DNA of 25,148 nucleotides from contig JBNJDB010000009.1 in the NCBI GenBank assembly GCA_051744465.1, positions 1 through 25,148 on the forward strand, in the 5' to 3' direction. Source of the DNA: Bacillota bacterium (lineage in GTDB: Bacteria; Bacillota; Halanaerobiia; Halobacteroidales; Halobacteroidaceae). The translations under genes and the position numbers were made by a program. The notes below the pieces were generated by a model. The model made no database searches and was not told where the DNA came from. It was given only the letters and a program-made list of their open reading frames with translations. Below are positions 1,296 to 23,295 of this stretch, one piece after another; position 1 is the stretch's first letter, and each line of letters starts with the position of its first letter.

Positions 1296-2150
1296 TCAAT
1301 TCCTCCCTATTAATTTCTTTTTTATTTTTTTAGCTAATTTAGAATTAAGACTATGACCAGACCTAACAGCAATAATATGACCAGTAAATGAAGGAGCTAA
1401 CTTGATATCTCCAATCAAATCAAGCACTTTATGTCGCGCAAATTCATCTTGAAAACGCAATTTATTAATTGGCCCACTATCATCAACCAAAACAGCATTA
1501 TCAAGACTGCCTCCTAAAGCTAAGCCTGCTTCTTGTAATTTTTTTATTTCATTAGCAAAACCAAAAGTCCGCGCTGGAGCAATCAAATCCTGATAATCAT
1601 CACTAGCGAAATCAAATTCAAAAAATTGATCTGAAATTGCTGGATGATCACCTACAAAAGTATAACTTATTTTTAATTCTTCAGCCGGCAATAAAGTTAA
1701 ATATTGATTACCATCTCTAATATAAATAGCTTCTTCTATTTGATGAATTTTTTTAGCTACTTCTTGTTCTTTAATCCCTGCTTCAGTAAACAAATCATAA
1801 AAAACTTTAGCACTTCCATCAGTAACTGGTGGTTCATCAGCATCAATTTTAATCAATAAATTATCTATCTTTAATGCATTAATTACAGACAACAAATGCT
1901 CTATAGTATTAATTTCTGCTCCAGAATTACCAATAGTAGTACACCTCTTAGTAGATGTTATATTATTAACATCAACCTCTATTTCCGGTTCCTCAGGTAA
2001 ATCTACTCGTTTGAAAATGATTCCATTGTTAACAGGGAGAGGATGACAACTAATGCTAACATCCTGACCAGTATGAAGGGCAATTCCAACATAACTAAAT
2101 TCCTTTTTTATAGTATGCTGCATCCTTTCCAAATGATCTCCCCCTTTCAT
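1296..2150 (-). CDS. lpxC: UDP-3-O-acyl-N-acetylglucosamine deacetylase (LpxC)
   Basis: Collinear with E. coli LpxC: [58 protein letters not shown]. The coordinate given is the ORF maximum. No SD precedes the ATG at 2150. GGGGGAG lies 5 nt before a TTG at 2132, and the ATG at 2123 (MQHTIKK) best matches the E. coli N-terminal length. The true start is therefore probably 2132 or 2123. Confidence 0.92.
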
Positions 2151-2164
2151 ATGAATATTTTCAG

Positions 2165-2905
2165 CTAATTTTGATAATACTCCAATAACTGTTTATACTT
2201 CTGACCTAGTTCAGACTGCGGATTATAAAAAATCTGTTCAGGTCCACCTTCTTCTACAACCACACCCTGCTCTAATAATAAAATTAAATCAGCTACTTTT
2301 AAAGCAAACGATACTTGATGAGTTACAATAATAACAATTCGATTGTTTTCATCAGTAGTTAATTCTTCAATTACATCTAAAACTTCTTTAACCAAAATGG
2401 GGTCTAAAGAAGCAGTAGGCTCATCTAATAATAATAATTTAGGATCTATAATTAAAGCGCGGGCTATTCCCACCCGTTGTTTCTGCCCGCCACTTAAATT
2501 ACTAGGGTAATCATCTTTTTTAGCTAATAATTTAACCTGCTGCAAAGCAATTTTAGCTCTTTTTTTTATTACTTTTCTATCTAATTTTTTCTTGATTAAA
2601 GGTAACATAACATTTTCTTCAACAGTCAAATGATGGATTAAATTAAACCCTTGAAAGACAAATCCAATTTGTTCTCTCAATTGTAATAATCTCTCAGTAC
2701 CTAATTCTAACATAGATACTCCATTTAATAAAATTTTTCCTCCATCTGGCTCAGTCAACCGATTCAAACACCGAATAGTAGTCGATTTGCCACAACCACT
2801 AGGACCCATAATAACAACTGTTTGACCAGCTTGGGCAGTAAAATTAACCCCTTTTAAAACTTGATGAGAATCATAACTTTTAGTTAAATTAATAACTTCT
2901 AACAT
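2165..2905 (-). CDS. ABC transporter ATP-binding protein, polar-amino-acid (GlnQ/ArtP/HisP)-like; not LptB-like
   Basis: Walker A is GPSGCGKST, Q-loop VFQGFNLIHHLTVEENV, signature YPSNLSGGQKQRVGIARAL, Walker B LLLLDEPTASLDP and H-loop IIVTHQ. It aligns nearly end to end with E. coli GlnQ as I remember it. A GGAGG SD lies 5 nt upstream of the ATG, in the 12-nt gap after the upstream membrane-protein gene. Confidence 0.9.
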   Translation of the reverse strand: MLEVINLTKSYDSHQVLKGVNFTAQAGQTVVIMGPSGCGKSTTIRCLNRLTEPDGGKILLNGVSMLELGTERLLQLREQIGFVFQGFNLIHHLTVEENVMLPLIKKKLDRKVIKKRAKIALQQVKLLAKKDDYPSNLSGGQKQRVGIARALIIDPKLLLLDEPTASLDPILVKEVLDVIEELTTDENNRIVIIVTHQVSFALKVADLILLLEQGVVVEEGGPEQIFYNPQSELGQKYKQLLEYYQN

Positions 2906-2917
2906 AATTCCTCCATC

Positions 2918-5305
2918 TTAGAAATAAGTTTTACGTTGATTTAAAAATTTTAAAATCCCTGGTTTTCCAGCCGGAATAATAATTTCCTGCATTATTTCAC
3001 CATAATTAAAACCTAAAGCCTCTCCAGCTCTAAATTCATCCCAAGAAACACCAGTTATAGCTTTAGCTTCTTTAAAAACTAATAAACCTAAACAAGTTCC
3101 TAAAAATAAAATAAGCCACCAAGGAAGGTAATAACTATCAACACCTGTTAAATAGATAATTCCTCCAAAAGTTAATATTCCAGCCGCTAAGCTATAATAA
3201 AAAGCAATATTACGATACCAACTTTTATCAGAGTTAAGCTCTTGTAAAGAACTAATAATTAATCCTTGGTCAAATAGCAATGATAATACTGTACAAAGGA
3301 GAGCAGTTATAGCAGTTAACAAGATCTTAACTTCACTCAAAATCTGATAAATTTGGCTCCGCAAGTTAGGAACTATAGCTCCTGGAGCAGAAGATTGAAA
3401 ATTAATTTCTTCATCTACAATTGCTCTTATTTCTTGCTTAACTTTTTTAAAATCAAGATCTGTAGCAGGTAATAACAACGAAACTTCTCCTCCTGGTATC
3501 ACCTTGCCCGCTAAATAATTATCTAACAGATCAATACTAGAAGTTATTTCCTCATCTTTTAGTTTAGGTAAAGACCGCTGAATATATTCTATTTCTTTGG
3601 TAATTTCTGCAAAGTCAATCGTTTTAAGCTCATCTAATTGATTCTTAATTCTTTCTAATTTCTGTTCTAAATTTGCACTTCTATTTTCTTTAATCTCCGC
3701 TATTAAATTTGAATTAGTAATTTCCTCTAAATTAGTAGCAAGTTCAGTCTTATCTTCGACTATCAATTGCTGACTAACAACTTTAATTTCCTGCACTCGT
3801 TGTTGCCAAGCTTTAATTTCTGTTAATAAAGGGTTATATTGATTAATATAATCTATAATACCATCAGTATTAGACTCTAACTCTTTTGACAAATTAGAAA
3901 CTGTTATCTTTAATTCTTCTAAGTTATTATAATACATAGATTCAGGGCTAAACTCCTGTTTAGCCACAGTTACCTGTGATTTTATATCTGCTAACTCTTC
4001 TTCAAAACTTAAAATCATTTCTCGCATTAACTCTAATTTTTCAATAACAAACCGCAACTGAGCTAATCTCTGTTCTAGAGAATTAAGATCTGATTTTAAA
4101 ACTTGCCCATCAATTTTTTCTATATTTTGAGTGTAAGAAGCTAATTTATGATTTAAAGATTCTACATCTTCTAGAGCAGTATCTAACAAATCAAAAGAAG
4201 AAAATAATTCTTCTAAGTTATTAATTAAAGAATTAGCATCAGTAAACAGATGATTTAACTGTGGTACTAACTTATTTAACTCAGTTACTAAATAAGCTAA
4301 ATCTTGCCGAGGATTATTAATTTCTACACTTCCAATTGCTTCTGTTTGGGTAGTAGAATCTATTTTATAAGCTAAATTGTCCAAAATTTGTCTACTATCT
4401 CCAACAGTAACTACCGCTGTTGCTATCATATCATTTACACTACTAACCCGCAAGTGTAGTTGACCATCGTTTTTAGCCGGCATTACTAATTCATCACCAG
4501 CTTTTAAGGATTTATTTTCGAATAATTCAATTTTCACTTCTGTTGCATAACTTGACAAAAAACCTTTCATCTGATTCATTGTCTTTACTAATGAATCCAT
4601 ATCACTAGATTTTGTCTCAGTTATATTAGAAGCTGCTACTTCAAAATCAGAACTCACTTTAGATTCTAATTTTTCTCCTAAAGCAAATAAATCATCTCGT
4701 TGATTATCAATGGGAAATCTAAGATTCAAAGTTTGATATTGCTCTAAAATATCATTAACTTCTTCTTTAACTTGACCACTAAATTGTGGTTTGCTAACTA
4801 TTACCTCTAACTTATCACCATTAGGAAAAGTAAAATCAACATTTTTTAATTGTCCTATTTTATTTCTTAATAATTTTTTAGTCTCTGTTTTAACCCCATC
4901 AATTGTCAAACGTGGTTCAGTCATAATTGAAGTAGTAGTTACTCCTTTAATCTTTTTAAAATAATTCTCTAGTTCTAGAAATGTTTCTCGATTCTTATAT
5001 TTATCAGCTAAAGCAATAAATGAATTACTCTTGCCCACTAAACTAATCCCTGTAATTAATTCAGAGCCAGGTATTTTCTCTGCTATAACTTCTTCAATCT
5101 GCTCTATGGTTACTTCTCGTCTTTGTTGGTCTATAATTAATAATAAATCATTATTTTCATAATCACCAATTAAGCTGTTAATAGCATCACCAAAATAATA
5201 ATCACTTGCATATCCAATTACTAATGAAAGTACTGAACTCAATAAAATTGTAATTACGAACAAAATTACCAAATCTTTTTTAAAATAGGATTTAAAAAGC
5301 AGCAT
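2918..5305 (-). CDS. Large membrane protein of unknown function, presumed partner of the adjacent ABC ATPase. One N-terminal TM, a ~620-aa extracytoplasmic alpha/beta plus coiled-coil domain, three C-terminal TMs and a cytoplasmic EAA-like tail
   Basis: The ORF track runs to a TTG at 5326 (802 aa). I prefer the ATG at 5305 (MLLFKSYFKK...) because GGGAGTG lies 8 nt upstream and a TATAAT box at 5329-5334 would place the transcription start downstream of 5326. In ORF-track numbering, hydrophobic helices are at residues ~19-40, ~668-693, ~706-728 and ~733-752. Residues ~340-640 are heptad-like and helix-rich (LNKLVPQLNHLFTDANSLINNLEELF..., LEQKLERIKNQLDELK). The tail is RAGEALGFNYGEIMQEIIIPAGKPGIL. 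Confidence 0.8.
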   Translation of the reverse strand: MLLFKSYFKKDLVILFVITILLSSVLSLVIGYASDYYFGDAINSLIGDYENNDLLLIIDQQRREVTIEQIEEVIAEKIPGSELITGISLVGKSNSFIALADKYKNRETFLELENYFKKIKGVTTTSIMTEPRLTIDGVKTETKKLLRNKIGQLKNVDFTFPNGDKLEVIVSKPQFSGQVKEEVNDILEQYQTLNLRFPIDNQRDDLFALGEKLESKVSSDFEVAASNITETKSSDMDSLVKTMNQMKGFLSSYATEVKIELFENKSLKAGDELVMPAKNDGQLHLRVSSVNDMIATAVVTVGDSRQILDNLAYKIDSTTQTEAIGSVEINNPRQDLAYLVTELNKLVPQLNHLFTDANSLINNLEELFSSFDLLDTALEDVESLNHKLASYTQNIEKIDGQVLKSDLNSLEQRLAQLRFVIEKLELMREMILSFEEELADIKSQVTVAKQEFSPESMYYNNLEELKITVSNLSKELESNTDGIIDYINQYNPLLTEIKAWQQRVQEIKVVSQQLIVEDKTELATNLEEITNSNLIAEIKENRSANLEQKLERIKNQLDELKTIDFAEITKEIEYIQRSLPKLKDEEITSSIDLLDNYLAGKVIPGGEVSLLLPATDLDFKKVKQEIRAIVDEEINFQSSAPGAIVPNLRSQIYQILSEVKILLTAITALLCTVLSLLFDQGLIISSLQELNSDKSWYRNIAFYYSLAAGILTFGGIIYLTGVDSYYLPWWLILFLGTCLGLLVFKEAKAITGVSWDEFRAGEALGFNYGEIMQEIIIPAGKPGILKFLNQRKTYF

Positions 5306-5328
5306 TTTCTTCACTCCCATCCGCAAAA

Positions 5329-5357
5329 ATTATACCTCAAGTTCGCGACAGAGTAAA
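5329..5357 (-). promoter_or_regulatory. Putative internal promoter upstream of the membrane-protein/ABC-ATPase/lpxC/fabZ/lpxA genes
   Basis: On the minus strand, TTTACT (5352-5357) is followed by a 17-nt spacer and a perfect TATAAT (5329-5334). This lies in the 64-bp lptA-to-ORF gap. No convincing terminator follows lptA. Confidence 0.4.
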
Positions 5358-5390: not shown

Positions 5391-6053
5391 TTATTCCCCA
5401 AATTCAAACTCCATTTCCACCTTGCCAGTTGCATCAATACTACCTGTTTCTAAATCAATTATAATTTTATCACTTTGAATCCACTGTTCATCCTCTTTAA
5501 TTTCAGCTTCTTTATTAACTACCATCTCTTCTTCTTCAGCATTATATTCCAAATTTTCTCCTCTAATCTGTTGTCCATCATAATCCATTTCTACATTTTT
5601 TCTAGCTAACATCTCATCAGTTTCTAGCCATAATTTCAAATATTCGCTAGTCAAATGTAATTCTTTATCATTTTTCTTAGTATCTAAAACGACATTATCT
5701 TGAGCTACTAGTTGATCTTCATCTAAATCCAATTCAATCAATTCACTAGTTATTGTTTCATTTGGTCGCTTTAATTTAACTTCATCTGTAAAAACTAACA
5801 TATTAGTATCATTATACATTTTTAGTTTATTTGACTGAACATTATTCTTTTGAAAATCCAAACTGACATTACCAGTTGCTACCCGCAAATTCTTCTTCTT
5901 TTTATATTGCACTCGATCTGCTTTCAAATCAACTTTATTGTCTTTTTCTACTTGATTATTAGTTTTATTATTGGGATCAGAATTTGCTCTACTAGGGAAC
6001 CCGATACTAAAACTTAATAGCATAATCAGTAGTAAAATTAGTTTATTTCTCAT
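5391..6053 (-). CDS. lptA: LptA-like periplasmic LPS transport protein (OstA N-terminal-type beta-jellyroll)
   Basis: 220 aa with a signal peptide (LLIMLLSFSIGFPSRANS). It has the OstA-type pattern KADRVQYKKKKNLRVATGNVSL followed by repeated 'D.V.L' strands. It sits immediately after lptC, with an 11-nt overlap at its start. Confidence 0.75.
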   Translation of the reverse strand: MRNKLILLLIMLLSFSIGFPSRANSDPNNKTNNQVEKDNKVDLKADRVQYKKKKNLRVATGNVSLDFQKNNVQSNKLKMYNDTNMLVFTDEVKLKRPNETITSELIELDLDEDQLVAQDNVVLDTKKNDKELHLTSEYLKLWLETDEMLARKNVEMDYDGQQIRGENLEYNAEEEEMVVNKEAEIKEDEQWIQSDKIIIDLETGSIDATGKVEMEFEFGE

Positions 6054-6627
6054 CCTTGTCAGCTCCCTTTACTTGAAAATTCATTCTTACATTATCAGTA
6101 AAATCAATTATATTAGTTTCCAAATCTAAATTCATCTTTTCTGCTGTTAAATTTCCTGTTTCCATTTCTACTCTAACACCATCATCAGTCTTCAAATTCT
6201 TATCTTCTTCATCCCACTTGAAAAAATCAGAGAATATTTTATCCCCATTAACCTCTTCTAAACAGACATCACCACGCAATTCAATATCTTTACTTTTCTC
6301 AAAATAAATTATTTTAGCAGCATCAACCTCGTATTTTAATTTATTATTAGAATAAAGTTTTGCTTCTTTAATATCTTCCAGAATAACTTTTACTTTACTA
6401 TCTTCTTCAGATTTAGGCTGGGTAATAGTTTCTGATTCAACATGCCACCTTTTTTCACCATTACTATAACTTAACAATTGAGGCTGTTGGACTTGGTATT
6501 GATAATCAGCAACCTCATCTGAGGTTTCTGATTTTGACTTGTCATTTGAATAAAGCCATAACAAGCTAACTCCTACAAATATTATGATAATTAATATAAT
6601 ATATAATTTATTCTTTCTTGACATCAT
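6043..6627 (-). CDS. lptC: LptC-like inner-membrane-anchored LPS transport protein
   Basis: 194 aa with a single N-terminal TM anchor (LYIILIIIIFVGVSLLWLY). A beta-rich periplasmic domain follows with LptC-like strands (IELRGDVCLEE..., LKTDDGVRVEMETGNLTAEKMNLDLETNIIDFTDNVRMNF). AGGAGG lies 8 nt before the ATG. The start overlaps the lptD 3' end by 20 nt. Gene order is lptC-lptA as in E. coli. Confidence 0.7.
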   Translation of the reverse strand: MMSRKNKLYIILIIIIFVGVSLLWLYSNDKSKSETSDEVADYQYQVQQPQLLSYSNGEKRWHVESETITQPKSEEDSKVKVILEDIKEAKLYSNNKLKYEVDAAKIIYFEKSKDIELRGDVCLEEVNGDKIFSDFFKWDEEDKNLKTDDGVRVEMETGNLTAEKMNLDLETNIIDFTDNVRMNFQVKGADKDEK

Positions 6628-9073
6628 CCAGAAAACCTCCTAGCTCTCCCTCCTCATTAAATAACCATCCTTCTTCTTCATTAGAACCAATTTCAGCTCT
6701 ACCTTGGGGAAAAGCTAAAATATCATATTTGAACCTGATTTCTTCTTTACTATGGTCATAAGACAAAGAAACACTTCGACAATGCAATTGTTTTTCTATA
6801 CTAATTTTAGCTGTAGTATGCTCTTCTTTTTCAAAATCATAGCTATTCTTTAAAGCTAAGTTCCATTCCCACTCGGAAGGGCCAAACTCCCAATCTAATT
6901 CATTATCCCATTGTATCATCTTTGACTCATTTAAATCAAATTCTGCATCAGTATTATAGGTTAAATCATTATATTCCACATCTAAAGCAGTAGTAGCTTT
7001 CTCAAAAAGGTCATCATTCAAATCATAAGTTACAGCTGCTTGCCAATCATAATGTTCATTAAATTCAATATTCAACTCACTTTTCAACGGGTCATAAGTT
7101 TCATCTAACAGATCATAAGCAGTTTTAATATAGAATCGACTATCATCTGTTTTCCACTCCAAACGTTCATCAATAGTATGTTTTTCCTCTTTCTGCCGAA
7201 ATCTATCTGGAGCTTTCCCTTGACCAAAATTATAATTATATTTCAATTCGTTATTCCAATTCTCCAATATCTTAGTATTAAATTCTAATCTACTCTCGTG
7301 AAACCAACGCATTAGACCATTGCTATAAATATCTTGCTGTAACTGTTGATCAATGATAATACTATTATTTAAAGGAGCACTAACTACATCTTTATAGCCT
7401 AGTTTATAATAAGCATTCTGTTCTCTACGTCCCCAGCTATTGGCATATTTATTAGCACCACCTAAAGACAGATCGAAGTTACTCACATATTTATTATTCC
7501 AAATTGAACCTGGATAAATAGTTCCTTCTACTTCTGGTAAATAGTAATAACCTATTTCACCATCTTGCTGAAATGATTGAGTAATTAATTCCCAATCATA
7601 AAAACTATTCCCTTGGTCTTTACCAAACTCCAAATAATGCAATTCACCAATTTTATCATCTTCAATTTCTTCTACATAATTATCCTCAATCAGACCTTTA
7701 TCTAAAGGATTATCATAATTGTATTGGTAATCAAAATAATGTTCCTCAGTAAAGTGTTTTTTTACAGCTAAATCTGCTCCATGCTCCTCTAATATATCTC
7801 GGCTTTCATCATAGTCATAATCTAAATCTAATTCTAAATCATCCCCATAATGTTCTTTACTTAATTCACGGTCATATTCAATAGCAAGGTCATAATTTCG
7901 TTCCATATTAGACTGGCTATCATTATCTTGCTCAAATACATGATTAATATCCACTTCTAGTTCATCTTGACTACTTAAATCTCCGCTAAGATTAATATTT
8001 GAATCAGTTTTATGCTCATAGCTACTATTTTTATCATAATTAAAATCCACTTCACTCTCTAAATTTTCCCACTCATTATCTTGACTAAACTCAAAATCAA
8101 TATCTGTTACGTTTTGTGGATTACTCCAATAATTACTTTTATGATTACTATACTTTAAATTGTATTTACGAGTTAGATTATGTTCTTTTAAATAACTATC
8201 AAGTTCTGCAGTTACCAAGGGAGAATAACTAGGATTTAATTTATCCTGTTCTGTATAGATGTAGAAATAAGCATGTTTATCTTCTTGATAATGATAATAA
8301 TGTTTTAATCCAAGGGCCCAACCAGTTTCTTCAAAATAATCAACATAAAGTTGACCCTGATCTTCAGCTAGTTGATTCGCTAAAACATTTTCATAATTAT
8401 TAGCAAGGTGATAGTTATAAGTATTCTTTAAAAACCAACCCCGCTTAGCACTGCGACCAATTTCATGTTCTAAAACTTGTTGTTCATTCTTTAAAGAATA
8501 AACTAAAATTGGAGAATATAAAATAGGAACTGTCCCATTAAACTCCCAAATAAAATTATTATAGGCAATGATTTTATCATCAGGATAAATAACTATGCTA
8601 CTAGATGTTATTTCATAATGCGAATGATCATAATCACAACTAGTTGACACTACATCTTCTAATTCACTTTTGTCCTGACTATGATTAATTTTGGGACTAG
8701 TTAAGTACAACTCATCGTTAAGACTATCATCTACAATAATACTCTCTGCTTCAATAAAGAGTCCCTCAGCCAATTTTAAATCATATTCTAATTTTTCACT
8801 CTCTATTGTCCCATCATCATCTTTAACTTTAACATTATCAGTAGCAATTACTTGTTCTTTATTCATATCAATCTCTAGCTTATCAGCCGATAAATCAATT
8901 TCTGATGTTTTTAAATTAGCATTTCCTGTAGCTACTACTAAATTTTCTTGTTTGTAATACTGCACATCATCTGCCGTTAAATCAACCTTAGTCTTAGCCC
9001 AAGAAGCAGAACTAAAAATAACAACTACAAGCACTACTACTAATAAATATCTAACAACTTTAATTCTCCCCAC
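6608..9073 (-). CDS. lptD: LptD (OstA) LPS-assembly outer membrane protein
   Basis: 821 aa with a GTG start after AAGGAGAAAGAG and a signal peptide ending SASWA. The N-terminal OstA domain reads DLTADDVQYYKQENLVVATGNANL. The segment STSCDYDHSHYEITSSSIVIYPDDKIIAYNNFIWEFNGTVPILYSPIL is collinear with E. coli FTSCLPGSDTW...GPVPIFYSPY. A long Y/D/N-rich beta-barrel region follows. Confidence 0.88.
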   Translation of the reverse strand: MGRIKVVRYLLVVVLVVVIFSSASWAKTKVDLTADDVQYYKQENLVVATGNANLKTSEIDLSADKLEIDMNKEQVIATDNVKVKDDDGTIESEKLEYDLKLAEGLFIEAESIIVDDSLNDELYLTSPKINHSQDKSELEDVVSTSCDYDHSHYEITSSSIVIYPDDKIIAYNNFIWEFNGTVPILYSPILVYSLKNEQQVLEHEIGRSAKRGWFLKNTYNYHLANNYENVLANQLAEDQGQLYVDYFEETGWALGLKHYYHYQEDKHAYFYIYTEQDKLNPSYSPLVTAELDSYLKEHNLTRKYNLKYSNHKSNYWSNPQNVTDIDFEFSQDNEWENLESEVDFNYDKNSSYEHKTDSNINLSGDLSSQDELEVDINHVFEQDNDSQSNMERNYDLAIEYDRELSKEHYGDDLELDLDYDYDESRDILEEHGADLAVKKHFTEEHYFDYQYNYDNPLDKGLIEDNYVEEIEDDKIGELHYLEFGKDQGNSFYDWELITQSFQQDGEIGYYYLPEVEGTIYPGSIWNNKYVSNFDLSLGGANKYANSWGRREQNAYYKLGYKDVVSAPLNNSIIIDQQLQQDIYSNGLMRWFHESRLEFNTKILENWNNELKYNYNFGQGKAPDRFRQKEEKHTIDERLEWKTDDSRFYIKTAYDLLDETYDPLKSELNIEFNEHYDWQAAVTYDLNDDLFEKATTALDVEYNDLTYNTDAEFDLNESKMIQWDNELDWEFGPSEWEWNLALKNSYDFEKEEHTTAKISIEKQLHCRSVSLSYDHSKEEIRFKYDILAFPQGRAEIGSNEEEGWLFNEEGELGGFLDDVKKE

Positions 9074-9083
9074 CTCTTTCTCC

Positions 9084-10154
9084 TTAAGTAATAACTTTAT
9101 CTTCTCTAAAGATTAAAAAACTACCTAATAGAATAAAGATTAAATTAGGCAACCAAGCTGCCATAAATGGATTCAACATGCCATTCTTCCCTAATGACTT
9201 TGCTACAGACAATAATACATAATAGATAAAAATAATTACTACACTAATAATCACACCCACTATTCGCCCCCGGTCAGATTTAATACTCAAAGGAGCTCCA
9301 ATTAAAACAAAAATTAAACAAGCTAAAGATTGGGCTAATTTGAAATGATATTCCACTAGTAATTTAGTAGTTGCCATACCACTTTCTCTAAATACTTTAA
9401 TCCTTCTTTTTAATTCATTTCGATTAAGTTCACTAGATTCTTTCTGTTTATTAATCAATTTATTTAAATTTGTATTCAACTTTATTTCTTCTGTTTCAAA
9501 TTCAGATTGACTATCTAAATAACCATCATTACTAAGACTAGATATAATTCCTGATTGCAAATTAATCGTAGTCCCTGCTACTTTAGCTGACTTAGCAGTA
9601 ATTAATTGCTCGTTTTTAAGATCATAAATTAAAATATAATCTATTTGATTGTTTTTATTATTTAATTTTTTAATATGAAAATATCTATTATTTGAGCCTT
9701 TAAAGAAAATATCTTTTTTTAAATGAGGCTCCTCCTTTTGATTAACTAGGGTATCTTTAATTGTTTCATATCTAGTAGTAGCCCACGGTACTATCCGCTC
9801 ATTAAGAAAGAAAGTTACGCCACTAATTAAAAAGCCTAAAATTAATAACGGCACTAACAACCTACTAAAAGTGATTCCGCCCATCCGTAAAGCAGTATAC
9901 TCACTATCTTTGACTAATCTACTCAAAGATAATAAGGTAGAAAACAAAACAGCCATAGCTAAAGTTTCTACTACAAAAGATGGTAACTTATAAATCAATA
10001 ATTTAATTACTGTTGTTACAGGGACCTCCTTAATAATAATAAAATCAGTTAATTGAAACAAAAAAGTACTAATCATAATTACAGTCAAAGCAAATAATAC
10101 TATAAAAAAGGGTTTGATAAACTCTACAGCTAAATATTTATCTATTATTTTCAT
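9084..10154 (-). CDS. lptG: LptF/LptG-family (YjgP/YjgQ) LPS export permease, second paralog
   Basis: 356 aa with three N-terminal TMs, a periplasmic beta-rich insert and three C-terminal TMs. The motif IFVLIGAPLSIKSDRGRIVG and the tail AAWLPNLIF are shared with the upstream paralog. The F versus G assignment rests on gene order only. AAGGAG lies 9 nt before the ATG and overlaps the stop of the upstream gene. Confidence 0.85.
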   Translation of the reverse strand: MKIIDKYLAVEFIKPFFIVLFALTVIMISTFLFQLTDFIIIKEVPVTTVIKLLIYKLPSFVVETLAMAVLFSTLLSLSRLVKDSEYTALRMGGITFSRLLVPLLILGFLISGVTFFLNERIVPWATTRYETIKDTLVNQKEEPHLKKDIFFKGSNNRYFHIKKLNNKNNQIDYILIYDLKNEQLITAKSAKVAGTTINLQSGIISSLSNDGYLDSQSEFETEEIKLNTNLNKLINKQKESSELNRNELKRRIKVFRESGMATTKLLVEYHFKLAQSLACLIFVLIGAPLSIKSDRGRIVGVIISVVIIFIYYVLLSVAKSLGKNGMLNPFMAAWLPNLIFILLGSFLIFREDKVIT

Positions 10155-10167
10155 AATTATTCGCTCC

Positions 10168-11268
10168 TTAACGTGAAAAGCTTAGAAATTCTTCTTTAAG
10201 TAATAATCCGAGTCCTAAGATTGCAAATATAATATTAGGCAACCACGCTGCCAATATCGGATGTAATAATCCATTACCACCTAACGAACGACAAAAGGAC
10301 ATAAAGACATAATAAATTAAAATAGTAACAATACTTGCTATAATTCCAAAAACCTTACCTTGTTCTGATTTAATACTTAAAGGCGCACCAATTAAGACAA
10401 AAATCAAACTGGCAAAAGGTGTAGCTAACTTACGATGATAATCAACAACTAAAGAATCAACTTCTAAACCGCTTTTCTTAAAAGTTTTAATATCCTCTTG
10501 TAACTCTTTACGACTCATCTCTGAAGTGGTTTTTTGTTCACCATAGAAATTATCTAGTTTTTTATTAACATTAATCTCGAAATCTTCAAAGCCTGATTGA
10601 TAAACTACTTTGCCTTCCTTATCAAATTTCTGCACTTTACCCTGCTGCAAATGCCAAACTTTATTTTTAAAATAGCCTCGTTCAGCTGTAATCATCCGCG
10701 GGTATTTTTTATCTTCTTGGAGTTCATAAACAATTATATCTTTTAATATACCCTCATCTCGATCAATTTGATTTATATATAAATACCTATCTTCAACCCC
10801 TTTAAAAAATACTCCCGCTTGCAAAGTAGGAATCCCATCCTGTAAAATAATCCTACGCACTATATTCTCGGAACGATGATTAGTCCAAGGAACTACTTGT
10901 TCATTAATAAAATATGTCAATCCACTAATGAAAATAGCTAATACTAAAAAGGGAACCATAATACGATGTAAACCAATGCCCCCCATCCGCATAGCTGTAA
11001 ACTCATTATTTTTTACTAGTTGAGTCAAAGATAATATAGTAGAAAATAAAACTGCTACACTAAAACTATTAACCATTATATCAGGCAATTTATAAACTAA
11101 TAATTTTAATACTTTACTAGTTGCAACCTGTTTAACAAGAATCATATCTATCATTTCAAATAAAGTACTGCTAATAGTAATTACTGTAATAGTAAAAATA
11201 GAAAACAAAAATGGCTTTAAAAATTCCCACAGCAAATAACGGTCAACTAAAGGTAGCTTTAATCGCAA
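10168..11268 (-). CDS. lptF: LptF/LptG-family (YjgP/YjgQ) LPS export permease, first paralog
   Basis: 366 aa with the same architecture as the downstream paralog (IFVLIGAPLSIKSEQGKVFG, AAWLPNIIF). A TTG start is preceded by GAGGGGGA at 6-nt spacing. The F versus G assignment rests on gene order only. Confidence 0.85.
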   Translation of the reverse strand: MRLKLPLVDRYLLWEFLKPFLFSIFTITVITISSTLFEMIDMILVKQVATSKVLKLLVYKLPDIMVNSFSVAVLFSTILSLTQLVKNNEFTAMRMGGIGLHRIMVPFLVLAIFISGLTYFINEQVVPWTNHRSENIVRRIILQDGIPTLQAGVFFKGVEDRYLYINQIDRDEGILKDIIVYELQEDKKYPRMITAERGYFKNKVWHLQQGKVQKFDKEGKVVYQSGFEDFEINVNKKLDNFYGEQKTTSEMSRKELQEDIKTFKKSGLEVDSLVVDYHRKLATPFASLIFVLIGAPLSIKSEQGKVFGIIASIVTILIYYVFMSFCRSLGGNGLLHPILAAWLPNIIFAILGLGLLLKEEFLSFSR

Positions 11269-11407: not shown

Positions 11408-12052
11408 TTAAAATTCATTTGTGAAATTAACTCCTACAGTTAATTCAACATCATCTAATGTATCAACAAGTCCCAAATCAGCACTAATATATTGATTAAA
11501 AGCAAACTTAGAACCTAGATTAAGACCTTCATTATATTCACCCATTATAGTAGTCACAGGTAACTCTAAATTATTACTACCAGTAGAAATTGTAACGGGA
11601 TTAAGCACTTTACTAGCTCCCATAAATGCTCTAGTACCTTGATGCTGGTCATCAAAAATCCCTAAATGTCCTCTAATTCCTGCTAGAGAAGTATCTTTAC
11701 TGGCTACTAGATAGTATTCCCGATCAACAAATCCTAAAGAAAGATCTGGTTTAAATTCCTCATTTTCTTCTAGTAAATTAACCTTAATAGATGGATAAAT
11801 ATCTCCTCCATTATTTAAACCTTGGGGCCATTTTAAGTTAGCACCAACTTGCACTTTATCATTAAAACCATAATTTAGTCCAATTAAATCACTGCTACCT
11901 TTCATCTGATAGCTCAAATTCAAATCTTGTGTTGTTAAAATTTCAGCAGTTGGAATAGTTAATAATCCAGTATCACCAAAAGTATTAGCCTCTACAACAG
12001 GTACTAAAGCAAAACAAATGAGCAAAACAAGAATTATAACTTTACTTTTCAT
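11408..12052 (-). CDS. Small secreted outer-membrane beta-barrel-like protein of unknown function
   Basis: 214 aa with a signal peptide (VLLICFALVPVVEA|NTF). Alternating hydrophobic/polar strand patterns run throughout and the protein ends in a C-terminal Phe (VGVNFTNEF), as OMP sorting signals do. The N-terminal FGDTGLLTIPTAEIL motif is reminiscent of YjbH-like OM proteins. GAGGAGGA lies 6 nt before the ATG and overlaps the lpxD stop. An intrinsic terminator follows the gene. Confidence 0.6.
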   Translation of the reverse strand: MKSKVIILVLLICFALVPVVEANTFGDTGLLTIPTAEILTTQDLNLSYQMKGSSDLIGLNYGFNDKVQVGANLKWPQGLNNGGDIYPSIKVNLLEENEEFKPDLSLGFVDREYYLVASKDTSLAGIRGHLGIFDDQHQGTRAFMGASKVLNPVTISTGSNNLELPVTTIMGEYNEGLNLGSKFAFNQYISADLGLVDTLDDVELTVGVNFTNEF

Positions 12053-13177: not shown

Positions 13178-13588
13178 TTACAAGTGATCTAACACCTCTT
13201 CAGTTATATCTTCTCCACCATATCTAATTTCATCCTTATTTAAAACAAGATCATAGCCTTGTTCCTCAGCTATATCTTCGACTGCTTTAGCAATATCTTC
13301 TCTAAATTTTTCTTTTAATTGCTGCCGATATTCATTTATCTCTTGATAAGCATCTTCTTGTTTCGGTGAATTTTCAGTTTCAGGATTGTAATCTTGTTTT
13401 AGTTCTTCTACTTTAGCATTTAATTCTTCTTGATAATTCTCTGCTTTTTTACTCTGCCCCCATAACTGATCTTGGTCCACTACAGCTACTTTAAGCTCTT
13501 TCATTTTTACTTCTGGCTCAGGAGCACAACCACTAATTATACCAATTAATACTATTACTAATACTGCTAATAAAAGCTGTTTTTTCAA
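13178..13588 (-). CDS. Skp/OmpH-family periplasmic chaperone paralog with a lipoprotein signal peptide
   Basis: 136 aa with a TTG start 6 nt after GGGGGGAG and 1 nt after the upstream stop. The signal peptide ends in the lipobox I-S-G-C (Cys21). The OmpH-like core reads VAVVDQDQLWGQSKKAENYQEELNAKVEELKQ ... IAEEQGYDLVLNKDEIRYGGEDITEEVLDHL. Confidence 0.75.
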   Translation of the reverse strand: MKKQLLLAVLVIVLIGIISGCAPEPEVKMKELKVAVVDQDQLWGQSKKAENYQEELNAKVEELKQDYNPETENSPKQEDAYQEINEYRQQLKEKFREDIAKAVEDIAEEQGYDLVLNKDEIRYGGEDITEEVLDHL

Positions 13589-13589
13589 C

Positions 13590-14738
13590 CTAGTCTCCCC
13601 CCATTTGTATACCTTCTATTACTTCATCACTAAGGTCAATCTTTCCCGAATTATTCTGATAATCAGTTAATATTGTATCCACTTCTTTTTCGGCACCTAA
13701 CTGATTAACAACTTGCTGAATAGAATCTTTTCTTTTAACAATTAAATTTTCTTTTTTCTCCTCTAATTCAGCAATATTTTTCTGTAAATCTTCAGTCTTA
13801 TTTTTTACTTTTGTTGCTAATTTATTCTCAGTTGAGTTTAAATTTTCCTCAATATTAGAACTCAATTTATTCTTTCGCTTTTCTATTTCTTGTTCTAGCT
13901 CTTGATTCAATTCAGCAACTTTAGTTTCTAGCTCTTCTTCTAATTGATCTCGCTTCTTCTCATAATCAGTTTCAGCATTTTCTTCTAATTCTTTTTTATA
14001 AGCTGTTAATTCATCTTTGATTTCCTGCTCTTTATTTTTAACTTCTGGCTTTATCGTATTCCATTGTTCTTGCTCATAATCAGCTAATTTTTCATCCTTT
14101 GTTGCCTGTAATTCTTTTAATTTTTCTTTTTTTTCTTCTCTAGAACTATCAGATAAATTATTTAAACTTAATTTTAATTTCAAGTTTAAAATTCGTGAAT
14201 TATATTCTTCTTTTAAACCAAGCTTATAATCTTCGATTTCAGTATCAATCTTTTCTTTTTCAGTTGCTATATCAGCTTCTACTTGGCTTTTTAGTTTTTC
14301 TCTTTTAGTTTTAAACTTTTCAGTTACTCGCTGATTTAATTGTTGCTTATAATCAGTTAATTGCTCTTTAATTATTTGTTGTTCTTTATTTATCTGTTGT
14401 TGATAATTATCTTTTATCGCTTCAATTCTAGATTCTAATTGTTGATTAAAATTATTTGATTGTTGCTCAGTATTATTGATTATATTAGCTAAATTATCTC
14501 TTTCATTTTTTAAACTTGATTCATAATTAACAATCTGTTTTTCTAATTCTTGAATTTGCTTAGTTAAAGGATGTTTGGCTCTAATTTTTTCTAAATTTAC
14601 TACAGCCACTCTACTTGACTTATTAGCTAAATCATCTTCTAATTCATCAGTAATATTGGCATTACTATAATTGACTATTGCAACAAGAAAAATAATAAAT
14701 ATAATTGCTATAATCTCAACTAATCGCTTGTTTAACAT
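13590..14738 (-). CDS. Giant Skp/OmpH-like coiled-coil protein with an N-terminal membrane anchor
   Basis: The ORF track starts at a TTG at 14762 (390 aa). The ATG at 14738 (MLNKRLVEII...) follows AGGTGG and is preferred. A hydrophobic anchor (LVEIIAIIFIIFLVAIV) is followed by an OmpH-like N-terminal strand (RVAVVNLEKIRAKHPLTKQIQELEKQI). About 300 aa of uninterrupted charged helix follow, then an OmpH-like C-terminal strand region (EKEVDTILTDYQNNSGKIDLSDEVIEGI). Confidence 0.65.
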   Translation of the reverse strand: MLNKRLVEIIAIIFIIFLVAIVNYSNANITDELEDDLANKSSRVAVVNLEKIRAKHPLTKQIQELEKQIVNYESSLKNERDNLANIINNTEQQSNNFNQQLESRIEAIKDNYQQQINKEQQIIKEQLTDYKQQLNQRVTEKFKTKREKLKSQVEADIATEKEKIDTEIEDYKLGLKEEYNSRILNLKLKLSLNNLSDSSREEKKEKLKELQATKDEKLADYEQEQWNTIKPEVKNKEQEIKDELTAYKKELEENAETDYEKKRDQLEEELETKVAELNQELEQEIEKRKNKLSSNIEENLNSTENKLATKVKNKTEDLQKNIAELEEKKENLIVKRKDSIQQVVNQLGAEKEVDTILTDYQNNSGKIDLSDEVIEGIQMGGD

Positions 14739-14772
14739 TATTCCACCTGCCTTTTTAATCAATAAATTTAAA

Positions 14773-15219
14773 TTATTCTTCCATTTCTGCTAATACTTCT
14801 GAGGTTAAATTATACCCACCATAAATTACAGCAGACTTATCTAAGATAATTGAAATTTCTTGTTCATCAGCAACTTTTCTAATCTTTTCATTTATATCAG
14901 CAAGTACTTCGTCAATTAATTCCTGTTCTTGGCTATTAAGTTCTTCTTGATATTTTTTTAATAATTCTTGCCGTTCTTCTTTATCCATTGTCTTTCCTTT
15001 AGTTTCTAATTCTTCTTTAAACTTCTTAGCATCCCCTTCTAACTTTTGTTCTGATGATTCCTTTTGGGGATGATTTTCAAATAACTTTTGCATATCTACA
15101 TAACCTATCTCCTCTTTTAATTCCTCTTGCTTAACTTCATCCTCCGCATTAATTGGATTAGTTATAATCAAAGCTATACTTAAAATTAATAACAGAGAAA
15201 AAATAAGATTCTTCTTCAT
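14773..15219 (-). CDS. skp: Skp/OmpH-family periplasmic chaperone (canonical size, cleavable signal peptide)
   Basis: 148 aa with a signal peptide (LLLILSIALIITNPINA). Motifs are IGYVDMQKLFENHPQKESSEQKLEGDAKKFKEELE and a C-terminal ISIILDKSAVIYGGYNLTSEVLAEM. It sits directly downstream of bamA, as skp does in Proteobacteria. Confidence 0.85.
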   Translation of the reverse strand: MKKNLIFSLLLILSIALIITNPINAEDEVKQEELKEEIGYVDMQKLFENHPQKESSEQKLEGDAKKFKEELETKGKTMDKEERQELLKKYQEELNSQEQELIDEVLADINEKIRKVADEQEISIILDKSAVIYGGYNLTSEVLAEMEE

Positions 15220-21384: not shown

Positions 21385-23295
21385 TTAATTTTTATCTTTT
21401 TTTTCTTTCTTGGAGGAACTATTAACTTTTTCTTCTTTTTTGATTTTAATCTGTTTTCTTACTGCACCTTGTAATACATAATCTGTATCTAGTACTGATT
21501 CAGCTAAACTGTTATTATATTCAGCTGCAGGTGCTGCTTCTTCTGTATTTGCATCCTCCCCCTCTTTATCACTGTTTTGGGGATCTTCTTGAGGGTTTTC
21601 TTGAGGCTTTTCTTCTCGATTAGTTTCTTCAGATTTTTCTTGCGATTGCTGGGCTTGAGGAGAAAAACTCTTTTTCAATTGAACAACTAATTGATTATTC
21701 TGCTTTTGCTCATTATAAATTTCAATTAATTCTTCTAAACTTTTAATATTATTAGTTTTAAAATTAGAATCTCCATTTTGAGATTGAGAAGTAATCTGCT
21801 CTACATTAGCATTTTGACCACTTAATACATAAAACTCTAGATTACCATTATTAACTTCTTCTGGTACTTCAAGAGTTACATTTTTTGTGATTACTTCTTC
21901 GCGATAAGGTCTAAACTTTATTTCAGCTTCTATTTGACCACCTGGTTTCACTTCTTTTTTATCTAAATTTACTTCTTCTAATAAAGCTACTCGGGGTTCC
22001 TTATCAACTTTTACTTCTAATTTAATATTAGCAAAATTAACTTCTTGGAAGGGATTAGTTGTTAACAAACCTAAGACCTGAGAAAAATCCTCCACAGAAC
22101 TAGCTGCAACATCGCTAGAACTATTGTATAAATTATCAATTTTTAATACTTTATCTGGTAAATCACTACTCATTATTTCTAAATCAACTTGGGCTGTTCC
22201 TGCCCCTTGTCGATCAATAGTACTATCTATAGCTTGTAATAAAGCAACTGATGATAATTGTGGCAATAATTCTTCATCATGAATAATTTGCAAATTGAAA
22301 TTTTGACTAGAATCTAAATTCTTATCTACAACTTCTATTTCTAGAGGCACTACATTAGGAAATTTGCCTATTTCTCCGGCTAATCCTGCTGATCTATCTT
22401 GAGTAACCACACCTTTTAATTCAGCGGGAGATCCAATTTTAAACGGCATTTTAACACTAGTAATCATTTGATGAATATAAGCAGACGATAATAAATAATT
22501 GCTAGCTCCTTTAGATAAAAACGGATGTCCGAAGCCTAACATTTTATTTTGGTCAAGATAAGTTAATGTCCCAATAGCAGACACATTTATATCTCCACGC
22601 ACTAATTGAACGGCCACTGCACTACCTGGCTTCAATGGTATATCTTTCTTCTTAGTAGCTAAGCCGGCACTCTTAACAGTTTTCACATCATAATCATCTA
22701 ATTTATCTGCTAATTCATTCTTAGCCCTTCCTGTTACTCCATCTACTGAAAGAGGGGTGCTTACTGGCTTAGCAACTAACGTTTTGGAATCCTTAGTTGT
22801 TTCCTCGTCCGCACTAAATTTAATCTGATTGTACACATCTCCACTAACTTCAACTGGTTGATCAAGCATTATTTCTTCATTATTTTTTTCTTCTAAATTA
22901 AAAACATTTAACATATCTTCAATTGGAGTTACCATCCCAATTTTATGATTAGCCATCTGCCAACCATAACCAATTGCTCCAATTAACTTCCCTTCTACAT
23001 AAACTGGACTACCACTCATTCCCGAAGCAATCCCACCGGTTCTTTCTATTACATCACCACTGGTTTTCACTAAAATTAAATTTTGACCTGGATTTTGATC
23101 TTCTAAAATACTAACTACTTCTACAGCAAACTCTTCAACCTCTGTTCCTCTTAAAACTGTTTTACCTACTCCTTGCATTCCTGATTCTAATTCTTCTAGA
23201 GGCATAATTTCTGGCTTTGCTAATGCTAGATTAGATAATAATAAAACAAATAATCCAGCTATAAAAATTTTACTCCAAACTCTTTTCAAATCCAT
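21385..23295 (-). CDS. Secreted peptidase S55 (SpoIVB-type) domain protein with reversed lobe order and a low-complexity charged C-terminal tail
   Basis: 636 aa with a signal peptide (FIAGLFVLLLSNLALA|KPE). Residues ~31-130 align with the SpoIVB C-terminal Ser lobe (EVEEFAVEVV...ERTGGIASGMSGSPVYVEGKLIGAIGYGW...IEDML). Residues ~225-300 align with the SpoIVB His lobe (SAIGTLTYLDQNKMLGFGHPF). The tail is rich in Q/E/K/P. Confidence 0.8.
   Translation of the reverse strand: MDLKRVWSKIFIAGLFVLLLSNLALAKPEIMPLEELESGMQGVGKTVLRGTEVEEFAVEVVSILEDQNPGQNLILVKTSGDVIERTGGIASGMSGSPVYVEGKLIGAIGYGWQMANHKIGMVTPIEDMLNVFNLEEKNNEEIMLDQPVEVSGDVYNQIKFSADEETTKDSKTLVAKPVSTPLSVDGVTGRAKNELADKLDDYDVKTVKSAGLATKKKDIPLKPGSAVAVQLVRGDINVSAIGTLTYLDQNKMLGFGHPFLSKGASNYLLSSAYIHQMITSVKMPFKIGSPAELKGVVTQDRSAGLAGEIGKFPNVVPLEIEVVDKNLDSSQNFNLQIIHDEELLPQLSSVALLQAIDSTIDRQGAGTAQVDLEIMSSDLPDKVLKIDNLYNSSSDVAASSVEDFSQVLGLLTTNPFQEVNFANIKLEVKVDKEPRVALLEEVNLDKKEVKPGGQIEAEIKFRPYREEVITKNVTLEVPEEVNNGNLEFYVLSGQNANVEQITSQSQNGDSNFKTNNIKSLEELIEIYNEQKQNNQLVVQLKKSFSPQAQQSQEKSEETNREEKPQENPQEDPQNSDKEGEDANTEEAAPAAEYNNSLAESVLDTDYVLQGAVRKQIKIKKEEKVNSSSKKEKKDKN

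Follow-up and report, generated by a model that had tools for sequence, protein, structure and literature searches.

Contig JBNJDB010000009.1 of a bacterium of the Halobacteroidaceae (assembly GCA_051744465.1), analyzed here over a stretch of 25,148 nucleotides (nt) that we refer to as the window, carries between lptA and lpxC two adjacent genes encoding a large membrane protein, which we call FAM, and an ATPase of the ATP-binding cassette (ABC) type. The existence of the FAM family and its genomic linkage are near certain from sequence, and near certain as well is the homology of the tail of FAM to the EAA coupling loop of type-I ABC importers, of which it is a genuine example. The presumed FAM-ATPase complex appears to be specific to Firmicutes with a lipopolysaccharide (LPS) outer membrane (OM), and we lean slightly towards viewing it as a self-contained, EAA-coupled ABC mechanotransducer of these diderm bacteria that acts in LPS/OM biogenesis. 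An initial annotation, made from the sequence alone, had not recognized the combination as a described family, and this still holds: neither Pfam nor NCBIfam yields a match for FAM above threshold, PDB holds no sequence relative of it, a close structural relative was not found with Foldseek, and no description of the pair was found in the published literature searched. There is a real chance that the module constitutes a new architecture class of ABC systems.

A coupling loop and an ATPase of the type-I importer kind

The FAM gene (2918–5326; all genes of the window lie on the minus strand) was listed from a TTG at 5326 as encoding 802 amino acids (aa), and residue numbers given here follow this form. 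The true start is probably the ATG at 5305 (M8, 795 aa), since most homologs (beginning MLLFKS) and the NCBI gene model, which is 100% identical to FAM and 795 aa long, begin there, a GGGAG motif lies upstream and a promoter-like site described below ends at 5329. The stop codon of FAM (2918–2920) is followed by 12 nt and then by the ATG at 2905 of the ATPase gene, an open reading frame (ORF) of 246 aa (2165–2905, minus strand) taken from the ORF list and recognized by its Pfam, NCBIfam and PDB matches. As read from the sequence, the spacer (gatggaggaatt, 2906–2917, minus strand) contains GGAGG at 2910–2914, which suggests that translation of the ATPase gene may be coupled to that of FAM. That the two proteins form one coupled ABC module, as initially proposed, is borne out further by natural fusions, FAM and ATPase being joined into one chain in four representative clusters, including Carboxydochorda and Limnochorda; the fusion of Carboxydochorda subterranea is WP_324716177.

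The tail of FAM (residues 758–802; 2921–3055, minus strand) contains the coupling loop AGEALGFNYGEIMQEIIIPAGKPGILKFLN and was assigned by Pfam, PDB profile searches and hhalign. The general pattern of the EAA loop is EAA-x3-G-x9-I-x-LP, and the fused Limnochordia forms even read VEAARAAG...VVAP in this loop. Among 41 diverse FAM C-termini, BPD_transp_1 was the top Pfam match for 27 (best E-value 1.9e-5) and none matched FtsX at E ≤ 1; the C-terminus from the window scored 14.9 bits against PF00528, under the gathering threshold of 26.4. A deeper C-terminal family profile searched against the PDB returned PotC and ArtQ as its top three sequences (E ~0.1), the alignment spanning the last transmembrane helices (TMs) and the EAA loop, and a shallower profile gave no matches. 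In hhalign comparisons the whole FAM C-terminus reached a probability of 94.4% against nine E. coli type-I permeases and of 18.6% (P 1.3e-3) against the type VII proteins LolC, LolE, MacB and FtsX. Since splitting the profile left 96.3% (P 2e-9) for the tail alone against the type-I permeases and 1% for TM2–TM4 alone (3.6% against type VII), the EAA signal resides in the tail. These comparisons sustain the earlier suggestion that the tail is an EAA-type coupling loop fitting a GlnQ-type ATPase.

PotC and ArtQ go on for ~80 residues beyond the loop, forming two TMs. This post-EAA pair lines the translocation pathway and is present in every type-I importer. FAM, unlike these permeases, stops after the loop. 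The initial annotation had already observed this for the window protein, which ends 13 residues after PGI, and the same applies to all 128 tails examined, which either end 15–45 residues past the loop or, in the fused forms, lead on into the ATPase. FAM thus lacks the type-I core of at least five TMs, two of them after the EAA loop, and it would be the first type-I permease known to us that has been reduced to its coupling-helix half. It differs from these permeases also by an extra N-terminal TM, by an external domain of 400–620 aa, by TM helices without detectable similarity and a window Pfam score below threshold, and by the lack of a binding-protein gene nearby. With the polar-amino-acid permeases GlnP, HisQ/HisM and ArtQ it shares the EAA loop and, in a relaxed alignment, the order of its parts, TM2-TM3-TM4-EAA of FAM being collinear with TM1-TM2-TM3-EAA of GlnP in matching orientation. 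The module is related to type-I importers via its coupling loop and ATPase, yet it does not show their core architecture. The simplest history would be a permease of the polar-amino-acid type that lost its last two TMs and acquired an N-terminal TM and a very large first external loop. We infer the identity of the FAM helices with importer TMs; because these helices are themselves unassignable, the notion of a truncated type-I permease draws on the tail, on collinearity and on the type of ATPase.

The ATPase possesses all catalytic motifs (Walker A GPSGCGKST, Q-loop, LSGGQKQR, Walker B LLLLDE and H-loop). Its best NCBIfam models were TcyN, GlnQ, EhuA, ProV and HisP, all under their equivalog cut-offs (225 bits for TcyN and 215 for GlnQ vs 174 for FtsE and 170 for LolD), and its best PDB match was ArtN (4yms_J, 6e-63), the ATPase of the amino-acid importer Art(QN)2. 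With phmmer, E. coli HisP, GlnQ, GltL and ArtP scored 158–185 bits against the window ATPase (HisP 185, GlnQ 183), whereas MacB, FtsE, PotA and LolD scored 116–131 (MacB 131, FtsE 125, LolD 116). The protein is hence of the importer clade of GlnQ, HisP and ArtP/ArtN and not of the MacB/LolD/FtsE clade. FAM-linked ATPases of other loci reached 206–411 bits, above the importer ATPases and far above MacB, FtsE, PotA and LolD, and are therefore a distinct orthologous group within or beside the polar-amino-acid importer clade.

An importer-type ATPase with intact catalytic motifs and a partner with a genuine EAA loop would also suit a working transporter, which might import or export a lipid A/LPS precursor, a lipid or an amino acid, either as an 8-TM dimer or together with an unlinked partner; the lipid A gene neighborhood could then mean a shared substrate. 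We consider such a transporter unlikely, as the pathway-lining TMs after the EAA loop are missing in all members and importers have nothing comparable to the large conserved external domain. Moreover, no solute-binding-protein gene was found in the window, in the 20-kb neighborhoods of four relatives or among conserved neighbors, and no conserved third gene of the module was found in the neighborhoods examined.

Topology and the external domain

Hydropathy analysis of FAM indicates TM1 at residues ~19–40 (5207–5272, minus strand), TM2 at 661–685, TM3 at 707–729 and TM4 at 733–757 (together 3056–3346, minus strand), followed by the tail at 758–802. The helices predicted by AlphaFold2 coincide with these positions, TM1 lying within a helix of residues 2–53. 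TM1 is a signal-anchor with a K-rich cytoplasmic N-terminus, TM2 and TM3 are separated by a cytoplasmic loop, and TM3 and TM4 by a short outer loop. The charge distribution in 59 family members obeys the positive-inside rule for an N-in/C-in protein, K and R being enriched before TM1, in the TM2–TM3 loop and in the tail and depleted after TM1 and in the TM3–TM4 loop. Because the tail continues into the ATPase domain in the natural fusions, it is cytoplasmic and the large domain external. Hydropathy, AlphaFold2, charge bias and fusions thus agree with the topology initially read from hydrophobicity, namely a TM1 with its N-terminus inside the cell, then a large external domain, three more TMs and a cytoplasmic tail, and charge bias and fusions speak against a cytoplasmic large domain. 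A cleavable signal peptide in place of TM1 was considered and rejected, as the helix runs unbroken to residue 53 and an invariant DYYFG motif comes after it.

We modeled the window protein and a 573-aa short form from Limnochordales with AlphaFold2, which gave a mean predicted local distance difference test (pLDDT) of 75 and a predicted template modeling score (pTM) of 0.37 for the former and a pLDDT of 80 and a pTM of 0.64 for the latter. In both models, a long helix with TM1 leads into four beta-alpha-beta(-beta) units, a helical arm, another beta-alpha-beta-beta unit and TM2. In the window protein, an alpha/beta domain (residues 55–338; 4313–5164, minus strand), delimited by AlphaFold2 secondary structure and Foldseek, consists of repeated beta-alpha-beta-beta units of ferredoxin/ACT-like type and a subsequent beta-rich part that is present in this model. 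It is the best-conserved portion of the external domain. The helical arm (residues 339–605; 3512–4312, minus strand), defined by AlphaFold2 and the family alignment, ends in an invariant LPxLxDEEI motif (residues 586–595), and a membrane-proximal beta-alpha-beta-beta unit predicted by AlphaFold2 (residues 614–652; 3371–3487, minus strand) lies just before TM2 in a region with the invariant residues G649, P653 and R656. The strongest conservation is found in the alpha/beta part and in the segments next to the membrane, with the motifs DYYFG, GEYD, AGKxNFF, TEPR, TLxEMKxFLxxYA, NPR, LPxLxDEEI and GxxxPxxR. The family as a whole is conserved towards both termini and variable between them; its members measure 560–995 aa, and the short forms lack profile positions ~410–474.

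The arm was initially described as ~300 aa of near-continuous helix that could form a hairpin of 20 nm spanning the periplasm. Such a hairpin is not supported by the AlphaFold2 model, in which the arm comprises five short helices besides three long ones (62, 50 and 61 residues) and measures ~9 nm, nor by the family alignment, in which it differs in sequence and in length, from about 150 to 400 residues.

In 25 N-terminal domains the alpha/beta part retrieved no consistent Pfam family, and no PDB sequence matched this part. Since Foldseek searches with the full-length model were dominated by coiled-coil matches, the search was rerun with the natural 573-aa short form. Even with this better model, Foldseek retrieved no close structural relative of FAM. 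The best PDB matches for both models were MmpL5 and MmpL4 (E 7.9e-6 to 6.4e-4; 9mvz_D at 7.9e-6 and 2.5e-4, 9syt_B at 6.4e-4), after which came ACT domains and periplasmic domains from AcrD, CusA and SecDF, with TM-scores of at most 0.15; LolCDE appeared at rank 48 (E 0.28). As in the resistance-nodulation-division (RND) proteins MmpL4 and MmpL5, ferredoxin-like 'porter' subdomains are predicted to lie close to the membrane in FAM and to be interrupted by a coiled-coil arm reaching into the periplasm. MmpL proteins are, unlike FAM, proton-driven RND pumps with 12 TMs, and sequence identity to them is 9–13% at the TM-scores just given. As judged from the models, the likeness is one of architecture, of porter-type ferredoxin-like subdomains with an inserted coiled coil, and not evidence of homology. 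A HlyD-like adaptor fused into the loop was likewise considered and rejected. The sole NCBIfam match was at the level of the coiled coil (TIGR01843, E 0.015, 14 bits vs a cut-off of 209 bits), lipoyl and beta-barrel domains flanking an alpha-hairpin as in HlyD/MacA were not present, and no membrane fusion protein (HlyD/MacA) was among the best 50 Foldseek matches for either model.

The topology of FAM is that of type VII ABC systems (MacB, LolCDE, FtsEX), with four TMs, both ends cytoplasmic and a big extracytoplasmic domain between TM1 and TM2. FAM may therefore be a divergent member of the MacB/FtsX/LolCE group that transmits mechanical force via stalk helices. This reading gains from beta-alpha-beta units that adjoin the membrane right after TM1 and right before TM2, as in the Porter subdomain, from the weak hhalign match of the TM2 regions (18.6%, P 1.3e-3) and from the Foldseek rank of LolCDE. 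We nevertheless regard it as improbable. The Pfam models FtsX, MacB_PCD and FtsX_ECD matched neither the window protein nor the 41 C-termini nor the 25 N-terminal domains, and the hhalign value falls to 3.6% for the TM part alone. The ATPase scores lower against LolD, FtsE and MacB than against importer ATPases (116–131 vs 158–185 bits), and the EAA loop of the tail is a feature that type VII proteins lack. Type VII systems couple through a helix between TM2 and TM3, whereas AlphaFold2 modeling of FAM alone predicts a 9-residue non-helical link between helices 655–697 and 707–727, and a similar one in the short form; coupling in FAM would occur via the C-terminal EAA loop. Of the type VII assignment put forward initially, the topology is therefore retained and the family membership is not: with no FtsX match, an hhalign probability of 18.6%, an importer-type ATPase and LolCDE at rank 48, type VII is an analogy of topology. 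The likeness to the start of FtsX extracellular domains that had been noted reduces to a beta-alpha-beta unit of a generic kind, as FtsX_ECD and MacB_PCD matched not one of 25 members. By analogy, the module would work most like type VII systems, in that it has no obvious translocation pathway and its work is probably done outside the membrane, yet it does not belong to them, as it lacks sequence or profile similarity, possesses an ATPase of another clade and finds negligible support in Foldseek.

Distribution and gene neighborhood

A word-indexed homolog search retrieved 16 relatives with the single protein, all from Halobacteroidaceae, and 11 with the family profile. This narrow picture is an artifact, because an exhaustive profile search yielded 258 sequences at E ≤ 1e-3, each representing a 50%-identity cluster, 121 of them below 1e-30; coiled-coil words had apparently swamped the word index. 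Named members from this search include Limnochordia metagenome-assembled genomes (MAGs) and Carboxydochorda/Limnochorda. We further scanned GTDB species genomes with a degenerate DNA pattern that we built by hand from the tail motif and obtained at least 120 loci. Judged by hidden Markov model, 119 of the 120 matches listed are true FAM members. Their record titles name 13 Halanaerobiales (Halothermothrix, Orenia, Natroniella and Halanaerobacter among them), 8 genomes of Limnochordia type and 24 Negativicutes of the Sporomusa, Pelosinus, Dendrosporobacter, Lucifera or Massilibacillus kind; the other loci are mostly unclassified Bacillota MAGs. The tie to the OM/LPS cluster of diderm Firmicutes suspected from the window thus extends, among the matches listed, to more than 100 genomes in three lineages, and no FAM locus in a recognizably monoderm context was seen among them. 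FAM members are generally annotated as 'hypothetical protein' in databases. The UniRef name of the Halanaerobacter jeridensis homolog, 'Nucleic acid-binding Zn-ribbon protein', is unsupported by sequence or model and probably a misannotation driven by the coiled coil. Six MAGs labeled Betaproteobacteria, Bacteroidota, Patescibacteria, Aneurinibacillus or Syntrophothermus also contain the FAM-ATPase-lpxC cluster; because their LPS cluster is of the same Firmicute type, the odd labels or the binning are probably wrong.

In every locus with room for it, again among the matches listed, the ABC ATPase gene directly follows FAM on the same strand. The gene after the pair is lpxC in 56 and fabZ in 10 of the 81 scorable loci, and upstream of FAM lie LptD-like/LptC/LptA genes or LpxD and a 214-aa ORF. 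One Limnochordales contig nearly repeats the window with the genes for an S55 peptidase, BamA, OmpH, LpxD, LptF/G, a 718-aa protein, LptC, LptA, FAM, the ATPase and LpxC. Sporomusa and Pelosinus genomes contain a second FAM-ATPase pair away from the LPS genes (eight loci), whose neighbors, an MFS transporter, radical SAM and CheB/CheR/CheY/CheX genes, give no functional clue. As this second copy stands beside unrelated genes, FAM and ATPase constitute a self-contained unit.

In the window, the order of transcription runs from FlgI over a protein with a peptidase domain of S55 (SpoIVB) type, a 1413-aa ORF, BamA and three OmpH/Skp proteins to LpxD, the 214-aa ORF, LptF, LptG, an 821-aa LptD-like protein, LptC and LptA, and continues with the 802-aa FAM ORF, the 246-aa ATPase, LpxC, FabZ and LpxA. 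LptA (5391–6053, minus strand) is separated from FAM by 64–85 nt, and this spacer harbors a promoter-like site, TTTACT-17-TATAAT (5329–5357, minus strand), that matches at 10 of 12 positions and is a mere hint, since the region contains no more such sites than expected by chance. The downstream neighbor lpxC (1296–2150, minus strand), which lies outside the module, begins 14 nt past the ATPase stop codon. Because no terminator-like site was found between FAM, the ATPase gene and lpxC and a promoter-like site precedes FAM, the pair may be transcribed jointly with lpxC-fabZ-lpxA.

Several neighbors merit a remark of their own. The S55 peptidase-domain protein (636 aa, 21385–23295) lies upstream of the 1413-aa ORF, which is TamB-like in that its Selenihalanaerobacter counterpart contains TamB Pfam domains; an S55 peptidase gene also opens the OM cluster of the Limnochordales contig (positions 1–1503). 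The three OmpH/Skp genes stand in tandem at 13178–15219, and the middle one encodes 390 aa with a long apolipoprotein-like helical extension. The 214-aa ORF (11408–12052), directly after lpxD, has no Pfam match and recurs after lpxD in many Halanaerobiales and Sporomusaceae loci, and its Selenihalanaerobacter orthologue has a precomputed match to YjbH (PF06082).

The Lpt set of the window (5391–11268) comprises LptF, LptG, the 821-aa LptD-like protein, LptC and LptA and lacks lptB. The classical gene order is lptC-lptA-lptB, so the ATPase gene occupies the place of lptB, and it could be thought to encode a functional LptB for the neighboring LptF/LptG, with FAM as an accessory of the Lpt bridge. 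This is very improbable, and the candidate was rejected: LptB is absent from the best 25 NCBIfam families (all at least 156 bits) and the best 60 PDB sequences for the ATPase, the ATPase is fused in Limnochordia to FAM and not to LptF/G, and in Selenihalanaerobacter and Sporomusaceae the pair has no lptFG beside it. In addition, Orenia marismortui, which has a FAM homolog, is listed with a separate lptB beside lptC, lptA and lptF/G, in a lptC-lptA-lptB-lptF/G group further downstream (Antunes et al. 2016, supplementary file 1). Since the window set lacks lptB and Orenia has this separate group, FAM-bearing genomes may carry two Lpt-like gene sets. The FAM module resembles LptB2FG and MlaFEDB/MlaEFD in being ABC-driven, directed to the envelope and located within an OM biogenesis cluster of diderm Firmicutes. 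Its TM folds and ATPase clade are, however, unrelated to theirs, and FAM has no OstA/LptC-like or MCE domain, unlike the Lpt and Mla systems.

The proximity to lpxC would suit another role, that of a sensor or regulator which tunes lipid A synthesis, for instance the level or activity of LpxC, to the state of the envelope. Control by YejM/LapB-FtsH in Proteobacteria would be its functional counterpart, and the idea is compatible with a mechanotransducer architecture. Among the matches listed, lpxC directly follows the pair in most genomes of the three classes; in the window the gap is 14 nt and free of a terminator, and the combination of a large external domain with a cytoplasmic ATPase would suit a sensor. 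Such a regulator nevertheless appears rather unlikely, as the support for it is gene order alone, the entire OM cluster is syntenic, so that adjacency may be inherited rather than functional, and the second pair of Sporomusaceae is not near lpxC.

Proposed mode of action and its meaning

Whether the FAM module is a mechanotransducer we regard as about evenly balanced, and the complex would then work as follows. Two ATPase and two membrane subunits (2:2, presumed) would assemble, ATP binding and hydrolysis would close and open the ATPase dimer, and the EAA helix (residues 762–786) would dock in the Q-loop groove of the ATPase. The movement would be passed via TM2–TM4 to the conserved membrane-proximal alpha/beta module and the helical arm, and the output would be mechanical work or signaling in the periplasm rather than solute translocation, with a target in LPS or outer-membrane assembly or its control. 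Mechanical work is likelier than solute transport because the canonical translocation pathway would be unable to form, and a role in LPS/OM biogenesis is the most likely one because the module is fixed beside lpxC-fabZ-lpxA and the Lpt genes. The roles put forward initially, as a Lol/Mla analogue, a tether or an activator of a periplasmic partner, are candidates within this frame.

Several points weigh against this proposal. A dimer of 4-TM subunits could form an unconventional pathway, and an unlinked gene could supply the two missing TMs in trans. The TM helices of FAM are assignable to no ABC fold by sequence or Foldseek. The linkage to lpxC attests to co-inheritance and not to function, and the second pair of Sporomusaceae sits away from LPS genes. 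An arm that ranges from about 150 to 400 residues across the family argues against a bridge of fixed length to the outer membrane, and the published literature searched does not mention the family.

A wider reading of the mechanotransducer, for which we see a fair deal less than an even chance, is that a type-I importer lineage was turned, by truncation and the gain of domains, into an extracytoplasmic mechanotransducer, a class of ABC machine not recognized before, that is ancestral to diderm Firmicutes and forms an integral, energy-driven and hitherto missing component of their LPS/OM biogenesis. One possibility is that the module stands in for LptE, LapB/YejM or Lol functions, which are absent or unrecognizable in diderm Firmicutes. 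Another possibility is that it drives the inner-to-outer-membrane remodeling of sporulating diderms, since the distribution of the family seems to follow Sporomusaceae, Halanaerobiales and Limnochordia and not the non-sporulating Negativicutes. As inferred from accession adjacency in supplementary file 1 of Antunes et al. 2016, Acetonema longum has two unlisted genes, EGO62940 and EGO62941, between waaM and lpxC, and in the non-sporulating Phascolarctobacterium, Megamonas, Succinispira and Acidaminococcus the order lpxD-waaM-lpxC leaves no space for the pair, so that the FAM family may track sporulating diderm Firmicutes.

The OM gene cluster of diderm Firmicutes has been mined repeatedly, yet the pair is unnamed in the published literature searched, and the conserved tail motif now offers a simple and highly specific marker of the family (119 of 120 among the matches listed). 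Diderm Firmicutes are key lineages for understanding how bacterial outer membranes arose and disappeared. If the proposal is correct, an ATP-driven machine beside lpxC in three deep lineages would be a direct candidate for an unknown step of LPS/OM assembly or its control, and FAM would represent a convergent, independent route to the design of four TMs plus a large periplasmic domain found in MacB, LolC and FtsX.

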